Shown: piece by piece, positions 4,535-38,064 of the stretch
How positions within the stretch are numbered: the first letter of the stretch is position 1
Layout: every line of letters starts with the position of its first letter
Assembly (NCBI GenBank): GCA_964364225.1
Contig: CAYIKP010000002.1
Location: forward strand, 1-54,488
Direction of reading: 5' to 3'
DNA length: 54,488 bases
From: an uncultured Candidatus Saccharibacteria bacterium
Lineage (GTDB): Bacteria > Patescibacteriota > Minisyncoccia > Phycocordibacterales > Zambryskibacteraceae
Translations under genes and position numbers: made by a program
Notes under the pieces: generated by a model
Databases searched by the model: none
The model's input: the letters and a program-made list of their open reading frames with translations, nothing else
Told to the model about the DNA's origin: nothing

Positions 4535-4801
4535 ATGCGAATGGTTTCCACAGCGAAGTATCGGGCCGGAGAGGATATTGGCACTTGGGTCCGCGCAGTC
4601 ATCGTAAATGAGCTTGCGATTGAGGAGGGGGTATTAAAACCCGACGCTCGATTTGGACACGAAATCAACTCCGACAGTCTGGATTTGATTGAGCTTGAGC
4701 TTGAGAGGGTCTTCGACATCTGCATCTCTGATGATGATATCGATGGAATTAGAACGGTCCAAGACATGGTTTGGTATGTGGAAGGCAGACTTCCACACTA
4801 G
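4535..4801 (+). CDS. acyl-carrier-protein-like small protein (orphan)
   Basis: 88 aa. ELAIEEGVLKPDARFGHEINSDSLDLIELELERVFDICISDDDIDGIRTVQDMVWYVE matches the ACP helix II DSLD motif. GC is visibly higher than the flanks and the gene has its own terminator. Confidence 0.55.
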   Translation: MRMVSTAKYRAGEDIGTWVRAVIVNELAIEEGVLKPDARFGHEINSDSLDLIELELERVFDICISDDDIDGIRTVQDMVWYVEGRLPH

Positions 4802-4822: not shown

Positions 4823-4858
4823 AAACCGCGCGACATTTCTGTCGCGCGGTTTGTTTTT
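4823..4858 (+). terminator. intrinsic terminator
   Basis: aaaccgcgcgac-atttct-gtcgcgcggttt followed by gttttt. Confidence 0.75.
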
Positions 4859-4911
4859 ATTTTTGTTTTTCTAAGAATTCAAATAGGCCAAGTTAGACGC
4901 CGTTATGGCAC

Positions 4912-4940
4912 TTGACAAACCATGTGATAGGGTGTATACT
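4912..4940 (+). promoter_or_regulatory. near-consensus sigma70-type promoter upstream of the DGR target gene
   Basis: TTGACA (4912-4917), 17-nt spacer, TATACT (4935-4940). Confidence 0.55.
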
Positions 4941-4973: not shown

Positions 4974-5026
4974 TTCGCCATAGCTTTTAGCACTCCATTT
5001 CTTGGAGAATTAAAAGCTATGGCGAA
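4974..5026 (+). promoter_or_regulatory. 16-bp perfect stem-loop in the 5' UTR of the DGR target gene
   Basis: ttcgccatagctttta (4974-4989) pairs with taaaagctatggcgaa (5011-5026). The loop carries ctcc..ggag. A second ctcc-tattt-ggag hairpin overlaps the GGAG just upstream of the ATG at 5077. Confidence 0.6.
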
Positions 5027-5076: not shown

Positions 5077-5736
5077 ATGTCCACAAAAGACATGCTCGGT
5101 CCGCTTCCGCGGGCACTCGTCGGTGTGCCGAACAATCGGCAAGGTATCATCCTCGACATCGCCAACCGTCTCAACACGGATAGCGAATCGGGTGAAGTAT
5201 TCCACGGAGACCTCGCGAAGTTCGTGCGGTCGTGGAAGAAGACAGCGACCACGAAGCCCCGCATCCTCTCCCTCATCTCGGCTGGGCAGTCAATCGAGAT
5301 TGGTGAGATGGACGGCAGGGAGACGCTCGCCAAGGCGAAGGACGTCTTCACTGGCTACGTTGACCCAGATTTCAAAAACTACTGGGGACTCGACGTCGCT
5401 GGCAAGGCGACTGCGAAGACGCAAGTCGAGGTTCACGAGATGGTTGGCGATGCAGATTTCAATGGCATCTTCAACAGTCTCGAGCGTCCTCTCGACGAGC
5501 TTTGCTTGACGCAGGCACAGATCAAGCGCTTCGCTCGCGACAACCGCAACTGGTTGCGCACGGACGGCTTTGCCACAGTCTTCCTGTTCAAGGAAAACGG
5601 CGAATTCTTCGTCGCGCGCGTGGACGTCAGCGGCGGCCGGCTTAGGGTGTTCGTGCGCCGGTTCGAGGACGACGATGTCTGGAGTGCCGAGAGTCGTCTT
5701 CGTGTGGTGGTTCCGCAACAGACGCTTGGGGTCTAG
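5077..5736 (+). CDS. DGR target (variable) protein, 219 aa, no recognisable family
   Basis: The C-terminal 40 codons are the VR. A sample line hand-counts to about 62% GC against AT-rich flanks. GGAG lies 9 nt upstream of the ATG. No signal peptide or TM segment is visible. Confidence 0.85.
   Translation: MSTKDMLGPLPRALVGVPNNRQGIILDIANRLNTDSESGEVFHGDLAKFVRSWKKTATTKPRILSLISAGQSIEIGEMDGRETLAKAKDVFTGYVDPDFKNYWGLDVAGKATAKTQVEVHEMVGDADFNGIFNSLERPLDELCLTQAQIKRFARDNRNWLRTDGFATVFLFKENGEFFVARVDVSGGRLRVFVRRFEDDDVWSAESRLRVVVPQQTLGV
5600..5719 (+). repeat. DGR variable repeat (VR)
   Basis: Ungapped match to 6029-6148 (offset 429). It differs at 21 positions, 20 of which are adenines in the TR. It ends in the shared A-free 16-mer tcgtgtggtggttccg. 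Confidence 0.88.
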
Positions 5737-5766
5737 TACTCTTGACCCTTGGGTGCCCTGGCACTT

Positions 5767-5793
5767 GGGCCCTCGGAGAAATTCCGGGGGCCC
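5767..5793 (+). terminator. GC-rich stem-loop downstream of VR (terminator and/or homing-associated hairpin)
   Basis: gggccctcgga-gaaat-tccgggggccc (11 bp with one G:T), 31 nt after the target stop and 48 nt after the VR end. Only a weak T-run follows. Confidence 0.5.
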
Positions 5794-6028
5794 AATTCAT
5801 TTGTATAATAAATATGTGTTCATAAGAATGCTTCGGCTAAGGCTTGAGCGACGTGAATACATGAAGATATTTTTGAGAGTTTCGTCGGGTATGCCTTGCG
5901 AAAGAGTGGAAATATTTTTCATAACAAAAAATAATTTAGTTGGTGTTGTATGTTGGTGGACTTATATGTCCCAAGTGAGATTCAATCCTGAGACTATTCG
6001 AAGGATGGTGGTATGGATGGCATACAAC

Positions 6029-6148
6029 ACAAAATCTTCGTCGCGAACGTGAACGTCAACGACGGCCAGCTCAAGGTGAACGTGAACCGGTTCGAGAACG
6101 ACAATGTCTGGAATGCCGAGAATCGTCATCGTGTGGTGGTTCCGAAAC
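6029..6148 (+). repeat. DGR template repeat (TR)
   Basis: Read in the target frame it has six AAC and three AAT codons (..ANVNVNDGQLKVNVNRFENDNVWNAENRH..). It lies in a decayed, start-less copy of the target 3' end (open frame about 5992-6189). Confidence 0.88.
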
Positions 6149-6159
6149 TAAGGCTATTT

Positions 6160-6185
6160 CTCCCGCTATTTTGGCGGGAGTTTTG
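6160..6185 (+). terminator. hairpin plus T-run immediately after TR
   Basis: ctcccgc-tattttg-gcgggag then ttttgc. The avd-like stop codon (6166-6168, minus strand) overlaps the 3' end of the 5' stem arm and the start of the loop. Confidence 0.5.
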
Positions 6186-6547
6186 CTAGAAGACCTTTTT
6201 TCCATCCACCAAGCTGTCTGCCAATTTCTCCAAGCTGTATTAAAAAGGAGGAGTATTTTTCTGTTGGTATGAGTTTATTTTCCCACGCAAGTTGGCTAAA
6301 AAATTTTAATATATCGAGTTTAGTTATTGCTTTGTTGAGTAAAGGAATTTTATGCTCTAGTGATAAATAGCTTAGGCAAAACGTGAGTTCTAGTGTTTCA
6401 ATAAATGTTTGTTCGATTTTATTTCCAATTCCGAAACGTTCAACTTTCGGAAAATCACGATGTAAAGCTAGCCAGACCTGATATGTTTCTTTTATTTTGA
6501 GAATTACCTGTGGTAATTCTCGGGGGGGGGGTAGTATTTTGATACAT
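6166..6547 (-). CDS. avd: Avd-like four-helix-bundle accessory protein; frame lacks a start codon unless the C10 tract shifts
   Basis: The minus frame is open from 6552 to 6166. The product (..LPQVILKIKETYQVWLALHRDFPKVERFGIGNKIEQTFIETLEL..LDILKFFSQLAWENKLIPTEKY..LGEIGRQLGGWKKG) resembles Avd/23S-IVS four-helix-bundle proteins. No ATG, GTG or TTG occurs in frame. The ATG at 6547-6545 is out of frame by one nt across the homopolymer. Confidence 0.7.
6499..6531. repeat. 10-bp hairpin abutting a G10 homopolymer
   Basis: gagaattacc-tgt-ggtaattctc (6499-6521) followed by gggggggggg (6522-6531), in the avd/RT divergent region. Confidence 0.85.
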
Positions 6548-6560
6548 ATGTATCAAAATA
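6535..6560. repeat. 26-bp perfect palindrome containing both divergent ATGs
   Basis: tattttgatacat|atgtatcaaaata is centred on CATATG. The plus-strand ATG at 6548 starts the RT. The minus-strand ATG at 6547-6545 starts the short frame upstream of avd. Confidence 0.85.
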
Positions 6561-7522
6561 TCATATCAGTAGAAAACCTGCTTGTTTCGTGGAGGGAGTT
6601 CTTGCGTGGGAAAAGAAAGCGTGCAGATGTGGCGGAATTTTCTTTGAGATTTTCAGAAAATATACTCCTTTTGTATAAGGATTTAATGGATAAAACATAT
6701 AAGCACTCCTTTTATTCAGCCTTCAACGTTTCCGACCCAAAACCTAGAAATATACACAAGGCCAGTGTTCGAGATAGGCTTCTTCATCACGCAATATATA
6801 AAGTTTTGTATCCATATTTTGATAATAGATTCATTTACGATTCCTATTCGTGTAGGAATTTCAAAGGAACACACAAGGCAATGGAGAGATTTAAACAATT
6901 TGGATATACAGTCTCAAAAAATAATACAAAAACTTGTTGGATTTTGAAGTGTGATGTTAAAAAATTCTTTGCTTCAGTCGACCAAAAAATACTCATTGAA
7001 ATTTTAAAGAGACATATTAAAGATGAAGATACAATTTGGCTTCTTGAGAAAGTAATAAACAGTTTTAACTCAGGAATAGCTGGAAAGGGTCTACCTCTTG
7101 GAAATTTGACCTCACAGCTTTTGGTAAATATCTATATGAATGAATTTGACCAATATGTTAAACATAAACTCAAAGTTAAATACTACATAAGATACGCAGA
7201 TGATTTTTTAATACTTCACCTAGATAAACAATATCTAACCGCTAATTTACGATATATAGCAAATTATCTAAATCAAGAATTAAAACTTCAATTACATCCA
7301 AACAAGGTGTTTATAAAAACCCTATCTTCAGGAATTGATTTCTTAGGTTAGGTTCACTTTCCGAATCATCGAGTTTTAAGGACATCAACCAAACGGAAAA
7401 TGATACGAGAGCTAATGGAGACAGATAACAACTCTGAAACAATGCAGTCCTATTTAGGAATGCTTAGGCATGGAAATACTCACAAGATAGAGCGCGATTT
7501 ATTCGATATGTCGAACAAATAA
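6548..7522 (+). CDS. DGR-type reverse transcriptase, interrupted by an in-frame TAG at 7349-7351
   Basis: Motifs PKPRNIHKASVRDRLLHHA, YSCRNFKGTH, LKCDVKKFF, GLPLGNLTSQLLVNIYMNEFD ((I/L)GxxxSQ) and IRYADDFLIL (YADD). GIDFLG-TAG-VHFPNHRVLR continues in frame to a TAA at 7520-7522. Confidence 0.88.
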
Positions 7523-7523
7523 G

Positions 7524-8564
7524 TTATTTTTGTTTTTCTAAAAACTCAAAGACAGAACGATTAGTGAAGATAGAGCGGACATATTCTTCTGCGCGCATTG
7601 GGTCTGCGTTAGTGTGAACTTTCATTATTTTTTCCACTTCAGATTTTATTTCTTCTGCGTTTGGTTCAAATTTTTCTTCGCGGGCGATTTTTGCCACAAT
7701 CATTTCCAGTTTTACTCTTTTTTCTGCATCGGGGCGTACATCTTTCAATATTTCTTCTTCTGTTTTTTTAATATTTCTTAAATATTCGTCCCATTTTATT
7801 CCTGCATTCCCCAGATCAAACTTAAGCCTTTCAAGAAGAGCGCGAGATTCCTCCACTACTAGCCCTTCTGGTATTTCACCATTTGTATCCGATATTAATT
7901 TTTCTGCAATTTCAGAACGTCTTTTATCTTTCACGCGCAAAGTTTTTTCCATCTTTATATTTTCACGAACATTTTCTTTAAGTTTTTCCAAACTATCAAA
8001 ATTGCCAACTTTTTTTGCAAACTCGTCATTTATTTCTGGATGTCCTTCGTTGCTGTGCCCCCCAGGACCTCCAGCTTTGCCTTCGGCATTCATTATCTGG
8101 TGTTGTAGGTTATGCAGTACAGTTTCTATTTCATCATCTTTTACGGTGTCGTCTGCTTTTTCTTCCTTTATCCCTCCTGCAATTTTTTTGTAATCAGGAA
8201 GGGTAATTTCGGGCATTGTTTCAACCTCTATTTCAAATTCCAAATCATTTTTAGGGGCGATTTTAGTAATACGAATTTTAGGTCTAGAAATAGGCATAAA
8301 TTTTTCTTCCGCAACAATTTCTGGATACGCATCTGCGATGGCTCTTTCGGCGCCCTCCTCAAGAATTGTGAGCTCTCCAACTTTTTCTACAAACATATCT
8401 CTTGGAACCTTTCCCTTTCTGAATCCCGGCAATTCTGCTTTCGTAAGCATTTCATCAAGGGCTATTTTTGATTTTTCTTCAAGGATTTTCCAATCAATAA
8501 CCGCGCTTATGGTAATGCGCATTCCGTCTTTTTTTGATGTGGCTTTTTTATATGTATTACTCAT
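7524..8564 (-). CDS. tig: trigger factor (short form)
   Basis: The N-terminal ribosome-binding motif LPGFRKGKVP is present. At 346 aa, no FKBP-type PPIase segment is apparent between the N- and C-terminal domains. Confidence 0.8.
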   Translation of the reverse strand: MSNTYKKATSKKDGMRITISAVIDWKILEEKSKIALDEMLTKAELPGFRKGKVPRDMFVEKVGELTILEEGAERAIADAYPEIVAEEKFMPISRPKIRITKIAPKNDLEFEIEVETMPEITLPDYKKIAGGIKEEKADDTVKDDEIETVLHNLQHQIMNAEGKAGGPGGHSNEGHPEINDEFAKKVGNFDSLEKLKENVRENIKMEKTLRVKDKRRSEIAEKLISDTNGEIPEGLVVEESRALLERLKFDLGNAGIKWDEYLRNIKKTEEEILKDVRPDAEKRVKLEMIVAKIAREEKFEPNAEEIKSEVEKIMKVHTNADPMRAEEYVRSIFTNRSVFEFLEKQK

Positions 8565-35948: not shown

Positions 35949-36791
35949 ATGAAAAAATTTAAACCAACAACAAAATCTCGTAGACACATGACAGTCCTTC
36001 CTTTCAAGGACAACATAACTACAAATGAGCCGGAAAAATCTTTAACAAGTGGATTTAGAAGGGGAACTGGCAGAAACCACCATGGCCGTGTCACTGTTCA
36101 GCACAAAGGTGGCGGGCACAAGCGCCTTTTCAGAGATATAGATTTTTCATATGATAAATTTGATATTCCTTATACATTAAAATCTGTTGAATACGATCCA
36201 AACAGAACTGGATACATTGGTTTGGTTTTCTATAAAGATGGTGCAAAGCGTTATGTTTTGATTCCTCGTTCTGTAAAAGTGGGAGACACGTTTATGACTT
36301 CAGAGAATGCCCCTGAAACTCCTGGAAATAGACTTCCACTACACAAACTTACTGTAGGAACATTTATCTATAACATTTCTCTTAAAAAGGATGGTGTTGC
36401 GAAGATTGCTCGTTCAGCAGGATCGTATGCTGAAGTGGTAGCTAAAGATGGTGATTGGGTAGACATAAAAATGCCATCAACTGAAATTAGAAAAATTCAC
36501 AAAAATGCGTGGGCAACAGTAGGTGAAGTTTCAAATCCAGAAAATCGACTAGTTAATCTCGGAAAAGCAGGTCGCTCAAGATGGCTTGGTATTCGTCCAA
36601 CAGTTCGTGGAACTGCCATGAACCCTGTAGACCACCCACACGGCGGAGGTGAAGGAAGACAAGGAAGAGGGCACCGTCGAGCAAGAACTCGTCATGGCAA
36701 GCCAACGGGCAAGGGTCAGAAGTCTCGCCGTGCAAAGAAATACTCAAATGTTTTCTTGGTTTCAAGAAGAAGAGTAGGAAAGAAAAAGTAA
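35949..36791 (+). CDS. rplB: 50S ribosomal protein L2
   Basis: HKGGGHKR, GTAMNPVDHPHGGGEGR motifs. Confidence 0.96.
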   Translation: MKKFKPTTKSRRHMTVLPFKDNITTNEPEKSLTSGFRRGTGRNHHGRVTVQHKGGGHKRLFRDIDFSYDKFDIPYTLKSVEYDPNRTGYIGLVFYKDGAKRYVLIPRSVKVGDTFMTSENAPETPGNRLPLHKLTVGTFIYNISLKKDGVAKIARSAGSYAEVVAKDGDWVDIKMPSTEIRKIHKNAWATVGEVSNPENRLVNLGKAGRSRWLGIRPTVRGTAMNPVDHPHGGGEGRQGRGHRRARTRHGKPTGKGQKSRRAKKYSNVFLVSRRRVGKKK

Positions 36792-36884
36792 TAAAGAGTA
36801 GCTTGGTATTTTTCAGCCCAACTACCGCTAAATAAATTTCAAAATTATAGTCGCTTCATTTAACGGAAAATTCAAAACTTCCAG

Positions 36885-36916
36885 AAAAAACACTCCAGTA
36901 TGCTGGAGTGTTTTTT
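36885..36916 (+). terminator. intrinsic terminator inside the S10 cluster (after rplB)
   Basis: aaaaaacactccag-tatg-ctggagtgtttttt. Confidence 0.75.
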
Positions 36917-36918
36917 CT

Positions 36919-37341
36919 GTGTTTGAACAGTTGAATTTTCCTATTTCGCTCGTTAATTTTGGAATTTATCACGCGAGGGCTGAAAAATACCAAGCTACTC
37001 TTTATAGAGAGAGAAAGAGGGCAAATAATGGCTCAACAGTGGTGTTTGCTGGCATCAACCTACTTATTGCGGTTGCGCTCACCGTCTACGGTGGGGCAAA
37101 ACTGCAAGGTAGCATTGGGGTCGGCATCGCTGCTGGCGTTATCGGTGCTGTGGGCCTTACGGCTTTCAACCTGATGCTCTCGAAGTCAAAACCGACAGAG
37201 GTTGGCTCACTTTTCGTTCTCATGGTCATGGCTCAAATCGCGGTTCCCGCGGTTTACCAAATGGTCATGTCGGGCGACGTGTCACTCAAGAAGGTTGCGG
37301 GTTTTCTTGCAGCATTCGCTGCCACCGTGCTTCTCGGCTGA
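36919..37341 (+). CDS. hypothetical membrane protein (high-GC cassette, start uncertain)
   Basis: Three predicted TM helices (INLLIAVALTVYGG, IAAGVIGAVGLTAF, VAGFLAAFAATVLL). A sample line hand-counts to about 60% GC. Candidate starts are GTG 36919, TTG 36931 and GTG 37039. Confidence 0.5.
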   Translation: MFEQLNFPISLVNFGIYHARAEKYQATLYRERKRANNGSTVVFAGINLLIAVALTVYGGAKLQGSIGVGIAAGVIGAVGLTAFNLMLSKSKPTEVGSLFVLMVMAQIAVPAVYQMVMSGDVSLKKVAGFLAAFAATVLLG

Positions 37342-37360
37342 ACCCATTCAAGGAGTGGTT

Positions 37361-37597
37361 GTGAGACAGCTTGAACCAAGAATTGGTAGGACTATCGAAG
37401 ATGCAGCCAAGTCGGCAGTTGCACTGGCTCGCAAGCACACGTGCCCAGTTAGGGTGAAGTTCAATCATGTTACGATGATCGTAGTACCCAGCGATACCCC
37501 GAAGTCCGTAGAGAGGTATTACGGGCTTGCGTCGTTGGTGGACAGCAAGCACATCCGATTCCTCGCTAAGTGGGTCAACACGAGGCCCAAGCGTTAG
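37361..37597 (+). CDS. hypothetical 78-aa protein (high-GC cassette)
   Basis: GTG start 5 nt after AAGGAG, 17 nt after the stop of the preceding ORF. Followed by a 13-bp terminator. Confidence 0.5.
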   Translation: MRQLEPRIGRTIEDAAKSAVALARKHTCPVRVKFNHVTMIVVPSDTPKSVERYYGLASLVDSKHIRFLAKWVNTRPKR

Positions 37598-37630
37598 TAG
37601 TAGTTCTGTTGGTACGAACACGTCGTGTAT

Positions 37631-37664
37631 AAAGGGGCGAAACGCTTGCGTTTCGCCCCTTTCT
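37631..37664 (+). terminator. intrinsic terminator
   Basis: aggggcgaaacgc-tt-gcgtttcgcccct then ttct. Confidence 0.7.
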
Positions 37665-37719
37665 GCTATAGTATTTCGCCAAGCTCTTACCGAGCTTTTT
37701 CGTTTCAAAGGGAAGAAAA

Positions 37720-38064
37720 ATGACAAGATCATCTCACAAAGGTCCATATGTTTACGAAAAACTCCTAAAGAAAATAGGAGGAAAAAAGCCCGCAGAAGCT
37801 GGGGTTATTAAAACATGGGCAAGGGCATCTCAAATTGCTCCTGAAATGGTGGGCTTCACCTTTGGAGTACACAATGGAAAAGATCACATTGAGGTTTTTG
37901 TTACAGAAGATATGGTCGGTCACAGATTGGGAGAATTTTCACCAACTCGTAAGTTTATTAAACACGGAGGAAAGATGCAGAAGGAATTAGAAATGGCCAA
38001 GAAACAAGCTGAAATAACAGCTGCTCAATCTGCAAAATCAGCCCCTGACGCTAAGAAGAAATAA
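37720..38064 (+). CDS. rpsS: 30S ribosomal protein S19 (C-terminal tail)
   Basis: [40 protein letters not shown] motifs. Confidence 0.94.

Follow-up and report, generated by a model that had tools for sequence, protein, structure and literature searches.

Background

Among diversity-generating retroelements (DGRs) of the candidate phyla radiation (CPR), architecture B3, in which a template repeat (TR) precedes an inverted avd and the reverse transcriptase (RT) gene in the order TR-(avd)-RT, is the norm and accounts for 90% of cases (Wu et al. 2018, PMC5758913). The main text of that survey groups CPR variable repeats (VRs) as 'unknown VRs' UVR1-6 and leaves their fold unassigned, and that of Roux et al. 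(2021, PMC8144416) describes CPR targets as typically lacking transmembrane (TM) or other known domains, with the guess that they are new variants of the C-type lectin (CLec) fold. Here we examine an element of this kind on contig CAYIKP010000002.1 (assembly GCA_964364225.1) of an uncultured CPR bacterium, of which positions 1 to 54,488 were analysed (hereafter the window, 54,488 nt). Its open reading frame (ORF) at 5077-5736 encodes a 219-residue protein, and we put at roughly 0.8 the probability that this is the variable protein of a CPR-clade DGR, with its VR presented as a beta-hairpin bearing a variable face and with a separate template RNA.

To our knowledge, every DGR variable protein solved experimentally uses the CLec fold. 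In the solved CLec variable proteins, the variable residues are found from strands beta3/beta4 onward, a constant aromatic residue lies within the site, and strand beta5 is non-variant; the CLec fold of one of them, AvpA, was unpredictable from sequence (PMC5006420). A conserved RNA has also been placed beside a TR, since the RT-10 RNA motif lies between the TR and brt of phage BPP-1 (Weinberg et al. 2017, PMC5737381).

A target gene and its template repeat

The elements that encode the target and its variation are the following.

4912-4940, plus strand: promoter-like site TTGACA-17-TATACT, 11 of 12 positions matching, upstream of the target gene
5077-5736, plus strand: target (variable protein) ORF, 219 aa, G+C content (GC) 0.586, GC at third codon positions (GC3) 0.75
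5605-5718, plus strand: VR, residues 177-214, taking in the beta-hairpin 176-195, the loop with invariant W202 and the last strand, RVVVP
5700-5715, plus strand: adenine-free, G+C-rich 3' end of the VR, TCGTGTGGTGGTTCCG, resembling an initiation of mutagenic homing (IMH) site; identical in the TR, with VR and TR diverging just downstream
5765-5795, plus strand: G+C-rich hairpin of 13-14 bp, about 30 nt past the target stop codon (z = -4.8), kept in a sister genome, L010
6032-6155, plus strand: TR (mutagenic part 6034-6147), with a GC3-like composition of 0.79, as in the target

The sequence at 5603-5726 is repeated at 6032-6155, an offset of 429 nt, and 19 of the 22 mismatches between the two copies fall at TR adenines (12 A>G, 4 A>T and 3 A>C). 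Within 5605-5716 alone, 18 changes are A>N and one is C>T. Of 84 non-adenine TR positions, 83 are kept in the VR. No second VR was found within the window. Together with the neighbouring Avd and RT genes and the hairpin downstream of the VR, this adenine-biased repeat identifies ORF 5077-5736 as a DGR target. The hairpin at 5765-5795 is the counterpart of the DGR hairpin/cruciform and, for the target gene, also resembles a terminator, and the stretch at 5700-5715 would function as the IMH, judging by its likeness to the Bordetella IMH as described by Wu et al. (PMC5758913). Between the promoter-like site and the start of the target ORF is a 24-nt inverted repeat (4974-5026; 88% complementary, 5-nt loop), which is also kept upstream of the L010 target and may be a regulatory or leader hairpin.

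The TR translates as IFVANVNVNDGQLKVNVNRFENDNVWNAENRHRVVVPK, that is, I-F-V-A-N-V-N-V-N-D-G-Q-L-K-V-N-V-N-R-F-E-N-D-N-V-W-N-A-E-N-R-H-R-V-V-V-P-K. Codons whose first or second base is adenine are interleaved with V, V, L, V, V, F, V and W; there are 18 such variable codons, nine of them AAY, and they allow on the order of 10^17 protein variants. Across 45 independent related loci the TR consensus is FFVANVNVNSDGxLxVNVNRFENDNVWNAENRHRVVVPKL, and 785 of 998 TR-VR mismatches fall at TR adenines. Because the alternation is common to independent loci, it is not due to chance.

These results agree with an earlier note on this DNA, made by reading the sequence, which had described the target as a 219-residue protein without a signal peptide, TM helix or recognisable motif, and with variable codons at every second residue. 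The TR reads as the note wrote it and as the 45-locus consensus has it. No signal peptide or TM helix was found in the target, whose highest Kyte-Doolittle mean over 19 residues is 0.72, and it has no match in Pfam, NCBIfam, PHROGs or PADLOC. From its sequence the target appears to be a soluble protein, probably intracellular or exported non-classically.

An exhaustive HMMER scan (E<=1e-3) placed the family at 1,807 representative clusters at 50% identity, with the conserved part spanning residues 60-215. All named matches are 'hypothetical proteins' of Patescibacteria (Paceibacteria, Falkowbacteria, Moranbacteria, Nomurabacteria and others) without a Pfam domain, and an N-terminus resembling a signal peptide or lipobox occurs in just 3 of 184 family members. 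Genomic loci were scanned with a narrower family alignment (A2) than the broad one (A1) cited below. In about 50 of 79 such loci, as in the window, the target on the plus strand is followed by the TR (plus), avd (minus) and RT (plus), which is the B3 arrangement with the target upstream; the remaining loci are orphan copies. The window target is thus a routine target of the CPR DGR clade and no one-off. The note had also held a cytoplasmic location to be unusual for a DGR target, which does not apply within this clade: the statement on CPR targets in the main text of Roux et al. (PMC8144416) means that the signal-less trait was already known there.

Some relatives depart from this domain organisation. 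Proteins P0044, P0045, P0074 and P0080 (360-560 aa) are built of the 155-aa domain repeated two or three times in tandem and have no other recognisable domain. Proteins P0041-P0043 (e.g. L093:4001-4669) share the N-terminal module of the target, about 55 aa long (MSKDMLGPLxRALVGVP...LDIANRL...FV+xW+K), joined to C-terminal halves that are unrelated and rich in D, W and Y; neither RT nor avd adjoins P0043. This suggests that the N-terminal module is an adaptor, combined in modular fashion with various domains that may themselves be variable.

Predicted structure of the variable region

The target consists of a helical N-terminal module (residues 1-58), modelled with lower confidence, and a conserved alpha/beta domain (59-215). 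AlphaFold2 run on the family alignment gave a predicted local distance difference test score (pLDDT) of 95-98 for residues 61-215, and the domain modelled alone is a compact 155-aa alpha/beta unit (pLDDT 95.1; predicted template modelling score (pTM) 0.91). In the model, DSSP assigns short strands at 64-66 and 73-75, longer ones at 115-122, 166-173, 176-185, 188-195 and 209-213, helices at 128-133, 139-142 and 146-155, and a bridge at W202. By these elements the VR spans a tight hairpin with its turn at G186-G187, a loop and the last strand. W202, in the loop, is the sole invariant column in alignment A1.

Hairpin geometry predicts the pairs 185-188, 183-190 and 181-192, which would place variable residues 181, 183, 185, 188, 190, 192 and 194 on one face and turn V182, V184, L189, V191 and V193 toward the core. 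The periodicity in the TR had been proposed to reflect one face of a beta-hairpin or sheet, and for these seven positions the AlphaFold2 model and the hairpin geometry support the proposal. Of the variable positions, the seven in the hairpin form one contiguous surface, by geometry. The variable face is a putative ligand-binding surface.

Fold of the target domain

Despite the confidence of the model, our searches matched the domain to no solved structure. Foldseek searches of the PDB with both models, run without a diverged CLec as positive control, returned no match at E<=1e-3 (best E 0.16 and 0.37; template modelling score <=0.21), and a search of BFVD, which should contain many phage DGR targets, was likewise empty at that threshold (best E 0.07). 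Sequence and profile searches of the PDB, whose sequence copy includes Mtd entries, gave nothing better than E=0.24; none of 34 family members matched the CLec-type Pfam families FGE-sulfatase, DUF1566, DUF6273 or Lectin_C; hhalign against Mtd gave a probability of 0.07%; and an iterated profile search through 5.8 billion proteins reached only CPR proteins that lack annotation. The outcome that the earlier note had said would make this an ordinary DGR target, namely a C-terminus placed confidently in the CLec/FGE fold, did not come from Foldseek, Pfam or hhalign. As neither sequence similarity nor a three-dimensional match to solved CLec-fold proteins was found, we do not file the family under CLec. 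An Ig-like all-beta sandwich carrying the VR does not fit the model, which has three or four helices, and no Ig match was found by Foldseek or Pfam.

The layout of the model nevertheless recalls the CLec fold. Its elements run strand-helix-helix-strand-strand-strand-strand, with 139-155 as the second helix and the VR at 177-214, and in their order along the chain they are compatible with the CLec series beta1-alpha1-alpha2-beta2-beta3-beta4-beta5. The 155-aa domain may then be a compact, highly diverged CLec variant and, structurally, an ordinary DGR target. On such a mapping, 115-122 would be beta1, the helices alpha1 and alpha2, 166-173 beta2 and the hairpin beta3-beta4; the VR would extend, in the order of the final four-strand series, from its third to just before its last strand; invariant W202 would sit at the base of the site as its constant aromatic; and RVVVP would be the non-variable beta5. 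Beta-hairpin VRs on CLec domains have reportedly been published already, and with the compatible element order they leave room for a remote CLec topology. Variable beta3/beta4, the aromatic and a fixed beta5 are common to solved CLec proteins, among which AvpA was equally unpredictable (PMC5006420), and in the main text of Roux et al. (PMC8144416) the uncharacterised VR domains of CPR are predicted to be new C-Lec variants. An alternating S-N-S-N-A-N stretch occurs in the Mtd TR as well. Against this stand a model of pTM 0.91 that matches neither CLec nor any other fold in the PDB, the empty BFVD search, the lack of CLec Pfam matches, the unannotated profile hits and the hhalign result, and we judge a hidden CLec domain to fall just short of an even chance.

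The same negative searches, obtained with a model of pLDDT 95, are what would be expected if the alpha/beta domain were unrelated to CLec and Ig folds and had been recruited independently in CPR as a platform for DGR diversification. The strict alternation of V and N over two full strands, as opposed to the clustered NN and NNN of the Mtd TR, is in keeping with such an origin, as are the failure of Pfam, NCBIfam, PHROGs and PADLOC to recognise the protein and the absence of a fold for UVR1-6 in the main text of Wu et al. (PMC5758913); the literature searched yields no AlphaFold analysis of CPR DGR targets. All points in favour of a CLec origin (element order, W202, fixed last strand) count against an independent one, and the sensitivity of Foldseek at the level of folds is limited, so that we would expect a new scaffold to prove wrong rather more often than right. 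The suggestion in the earlier note of a ligand-binding scaffold new to DGRs accordingly survives in that no known fold was matched in the PDB, BFVD or profile searches, and is weakened by an element order compatible with the CLec layout (PMC5006420). The difference that it saw from canonical CLec VRs is real for the strict V/N alternation, set beside the NN/NNN runs of the Mtd TR, and does not extend to the alternating stretch in that same TR.

A structured RNA upstream of the template repeat

The spacer between VR and TR, about 300 nt long, is conserved across loci, and with the sequence just past the TR it holds the following features.

5801-5809, plus strand: TTGTATAAT box, putative -10 element of the TR RNA, conserved in alignments A4 and A6
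5831-6030, plus strand: six-helix structured RNA domain directly 5' of the TR, ending 1-2 nt before it
5831-37/5842-48, 5866-74/5908-16 and 5880-89/5894-5903, plus strand: helices P1, P2 and P3
5943-54/6019-30, 5958-61/5968-71 and 5985-89/6002-06, plus strand: helices P4, P5 and P6
6160-6186, plus strand: intrinsic-terminator-like hairpin CTCCCGC/GCGGGAG followed by TTTT, right after the TR and overlapping the 3' end of avd on the other strand

In an alignment of 45 related DGR loci, RNAalifold predicted 44 pairs, 37 of them with compensatory changes. Cells of the alignment are paired in 94.2% of cases, versus 43-51% with slid partners, and 403 cells carry a double change, versus 63-86 in the slid controls; none of 500 shuffles reached the observed values. 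The terminator-like hairpin is also kept with compensatory changes, in alignment A4. No Rfam 15 family matched the spacer RNA at E<=1. The box and the terminator-like hairpin, taken as the two ends, would delimit what is probably a stand-alone template RNA of about 370 nt.

Recent diversification and the state of this copy

The VR varies among close relatives. Within the 90% cluster that includes the window protein, all differences of P0186 and P0187 from it fall at TR-adenine codons, and the variant codons among proteins of this cluster are 183, 185, 190, 192, 200, 203, 206 and 208. A contig from the Hainich H51 groundwater well (L089) overlaps the window over 9.8 kb and differs from it at 24 positions, of which 14 lie within 77 nt of the VR (5623-5699) and 13 of these 14 are at TR-adenine sites. 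Divergence is about 18% in the VR and 0.1% elsewhere. One aquifer carries three VR variants, and the DGR has recently been active in its population.

The remainder of the cassette and its borders are as follows.

4857-4883: left 27-nt direct repeat, reading FEFLEKQK and a stop on the minus strand, a duplicated tig 3' end
6166-6504, minus strand: avd (bAvd 8e-12, DivGenRetAVD 5e-17), opposite in strand to TR and RT
6522-6531: homopolymer G10 (C10 on the avd strand) between the divergent avd and RT starts
6548-7522, plus strand: DGR RT (RVT_1 5e-23) with the motif LGNLTSQ, interrupted by an in-frame TAG at 7349-7351
7524-7550: right 27-nt direct repeat, the true 3' end of tig, which spans 7524-8564

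The two 27-nt copies bracket the whole cassette from target to RT, and the duplication of the tig 3' end on both sides suggests that the cassette was inserted there. The RT averages 62% identity to the RTs of 38 related cassettes and has LGNLTSQ as its motif of the (I/L/V)GxxxSQ type. The correlation between the pairwise identities of targets and those of RTs (rho 0.38, over a narrow range of identities) says little about co-inheritance.

Both genes of the DGR core have oddities in this copy. The TAG that cuts the RT ORF replaces a TGG (Trp) found in 27 of 35 homologues, beyond which the frame runs on for 56 codons of the thumb region, and the RT of L089 carries the same TAG. Reassignment of TAG was rejected as an explanation, as this codon ends 17 of 49 long ORFs in the genome. 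One homologous RT has TGA at the same conserved Trp codon. In avd, no ATG, GTG or TTG start is available downstream of the C-run, and the ATG at 6547-6545 is one base out of frame at the present run length. The homopolymer, which reads PPP in the avd frame, is 8-12 nt long in 35 of 46 related loci (at least 7 nt in 37 of 46). It counts 11 G in L089, which comes from the same aquifer, and is also where two independent contigs break off. Of the closest open ATG codons upstream, those of 10 loci share the avd frame, those of 17 lie at +1 and those of 10 at +2; avd has no usable start in 11 loci, the window included. In sequence terms the pattern suggests slippage or phase variation of avd, although the length differences may be a sequencing artefact.

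With a conserved Trp codon turned into an ordinary stop, the window copy may be inactive now, and the cassette could be a decaying relic whose VR is frozen, its RT truncated and its avd unable to start. Loss of the core does occur, in that L010 (L010:1-2964, in the Paceibacterota metagenome-assembled genome DATEAC010000024.1) retains, beside tig, the G+C-rich target with the hairpin and the initial 225 nt of the spacer; a small pair of toxin-antitoxin-like genes has taken the place of TR, avd and RT, and the target is now an orphan. A frozen VR is difficult to reconcile with two haplotypes that both bear the TAG and yet differ at 13 TR-adenine sites of the VR against about 0.1% elsewhere, or with a third VR variant in other samples; moreover, the C-run is polymorphic in length (10 versus 11), so avd may switch on and off. 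We therefore regard a relic as unlikely. Since the TAG is shared by haplotypes that differ at VR adenine sites, diversification was very recent and may have continued with the TAG present, whether by readthrough, by RT supplied in trans or by recombination among haplotypes.

High G+C content of the target gene

The target had been estimated by eye at about 60% GC against low-GC neighbours, and the measured values are close to this: 0.586 for the target, 0.31 for RT (GC3 0.28) and 0.34 for avd (GC3 0.30), in a genome of 38% GC. At third codon positions the target (0.75) and the TR (0.79) lie far above the 40 other ORFs of the window (0.21-0.35). The excess forms a plateau bounded by the target ORF. 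At fourfold sites C accounts for most of it (+0.11), and A and T are both reduced.

A simple reading is that target and TR were recently acquired from a G+C-rich donor by an A+T-rich genome. The contrast in composition with host, RT and avd would follow from it, the duplicated tig 3' end brackets the cassette, and transposase genes adjoin a homologue in locus L001. The excess is, on the other hand, family-wide: outside the VR, target GC3 exceeds that of the host in 61 of 76 loci (mean +0.17; the window, at +0.47, is the highest), whereas the adjacent RT tracks the host (mean -0.01). In the sister genome L010 the target has the same setting next to tig. Outside the VR the two proteins share 82% identity, and the genes differ at 41% of fourfold sites, but both targets keep 70-80% G+C at these sites; the neighbouring tig is A+T-rich, with 64% of its fourfold sites different. 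The family-wide excess, the plateau confined to the ORF and the composition kept in L010 are poorly explained by a single recent transfer, which we consider improbable.

Other causes were examined. An assembly chimera was rejected: four independent contigs carry the junctions from host through the acyl-carrier-protein (ACP)-like gene, target and TR to avd, and L089 spans the whole cassette. Depletion of adenine across the whole gene by self-templated mutagenesis was also rejected, because C makes up most of the excess and T is depleted to the same extent as A, which argues against any adenine-specific process. Translational selection for GC3 is unlikely, as no other window gene, ribosomal-protein genes included, has a raised GC3. 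Repeated transfer, selection or biased conversion may be the source of the excess.

Other features of the window

Just upstream of the cassette, ORF 4535-4801 encodes an ACP-like protein of 88 aa (PP-binding 2e-4; NCBIfam ACP models 6e-17, below cut-off). Its GC is raised to 0.49 and its GC3 to 0.54, it has its own terminator at 4823-4852, and no fatty-acid or polyketide genes are nearby. In the ribosomal-protein operon, an insert of about 0.9 kb (36800-37720; GC about 0.53) separates rplB (35949-36791) from rpsS (37720-38064). It holds a 140-aa ORF (36919-37341) with hydrophobic, membrane-like stretches, and the insert gave no credible match in Rfam.

Proposed mechanism and significance

In the mechanism that we propose, a separate RNA of about 370 nt would begin after the TTGTATAAT box, contain the structured domain and the TR, and stop at the terminator hairpin 6160-6186. 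RT and Avd would copy the TR, erring at adenines, and the cDNA would replace the VR at 5605-5718, bounded on its 3' side by the adenine-free, G+C-rich stretch and the 13-14 bp hairpin. The renewed VR would encode the hairpin 176-195, the W202 loop and the fixed RVVVP strand of the 155-aa domain, behind the helical N-terminal module; seven variable side chains would lie on one face of the hairpin with their V and L partners in the core, and residues 198-208 would add a neighbouring variable loop.

Several observations weigh against this account. The TAG at the conserved Trp codon of RT is present in both assemblies that cover the site, and avd has no usable start codon at the present length of the C-run. 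Display on a single face is predicted from hairpin geometry and covers the seven hairpin positions only. We advance more tentatively, and would not be surprised to see fail, the wider combination in which the fold is new to solved structures, the target is a soluble, probably intracellular variable binder present in thousands of CPR lineages, a target-specific force (selection, or biased repair or conversion linked to retrohoming) maintains its G+C, and the template RNA has a domain of its own 5' of the TR.

The main texts of the surveys leave open, for CPR targets, whether CLec alone tolerates massive variation. The family, with its 1,807 clusters, is large, and the protein is small enough for crystallography or NMR; its very confident model is directly testable. 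If the fold is not CLec, it would be a second natural solution and a compact scaffold for binders that use a sheet surface; if it is a hidden CLec, the limits of that fold are extended. The RNA 5' of the TR, the avd tract, the GC3 excess and the turnover of the VR despite the RT stop are testable handles on the templating, regulation and maintenance of CPR DGRs.

Comparison with known systems

In gut-phage DGR targets with Ig domains, the VR is likewise a surface beta-hairpin flanked by loops, on a fold that sequence methods miss; unlike these, the window family occurs in CPR cells and has no Ig domains. Lamprey variable lymphocyte receptors (VLRs) and engineered binders that use a sheet surface also have alternate strand positions that are variable and solvent-facing, with constant, buried residues between them. 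The parallel is one of analogy only, since their folds and mechanisms of diversification are unrelated to those of the window target.

The CLec variable proteins Mtd (of Bordetella phage BPP-1), TvpA, AvpA and TaqVP share with the window target a C-terminal VR in which AAY codons abound, variable residues displayed by strands and loops that surround a constant aromatic, and a non-variable last strand encoded by the IMH-proximal end of the VR, and their order of elements is compatible with that of the target (PMC5006420). The target differs from them in having no sequence, profile or Foldseek similarity to them, in alternating its variable codons with buried V or L over two full strands instead of clustering them as NN or NNN, and in lacking a trimerisation domain, an FGE-sulfatase region, a signal peptide and a lipobox. 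RT-10 (PMC5737381), like the RNA described here, is a conserved structured RNA that adjoins a DGR TR and is presumably part of the template RNA. RT-10 lies 3' of the TR, whereas the RNA in the window lies 5' of it, has six helices over about 200 nt and has no match in Rfam 15.

The closest described system is the CPR DGR clade itself (B3 and UVR1-6 in PMC5758913; clade 2 in PMC8144416), with which the window shares, as the main texts of those surveys describe it, the gene order, the inverted avd, CPR hosts and targets that have neither TM nor known domains and no assigned fold. To those main texts the present analysis adds a structure prediction, the size of the family, the GC3 excess and the structured RNA 5' of the TR.

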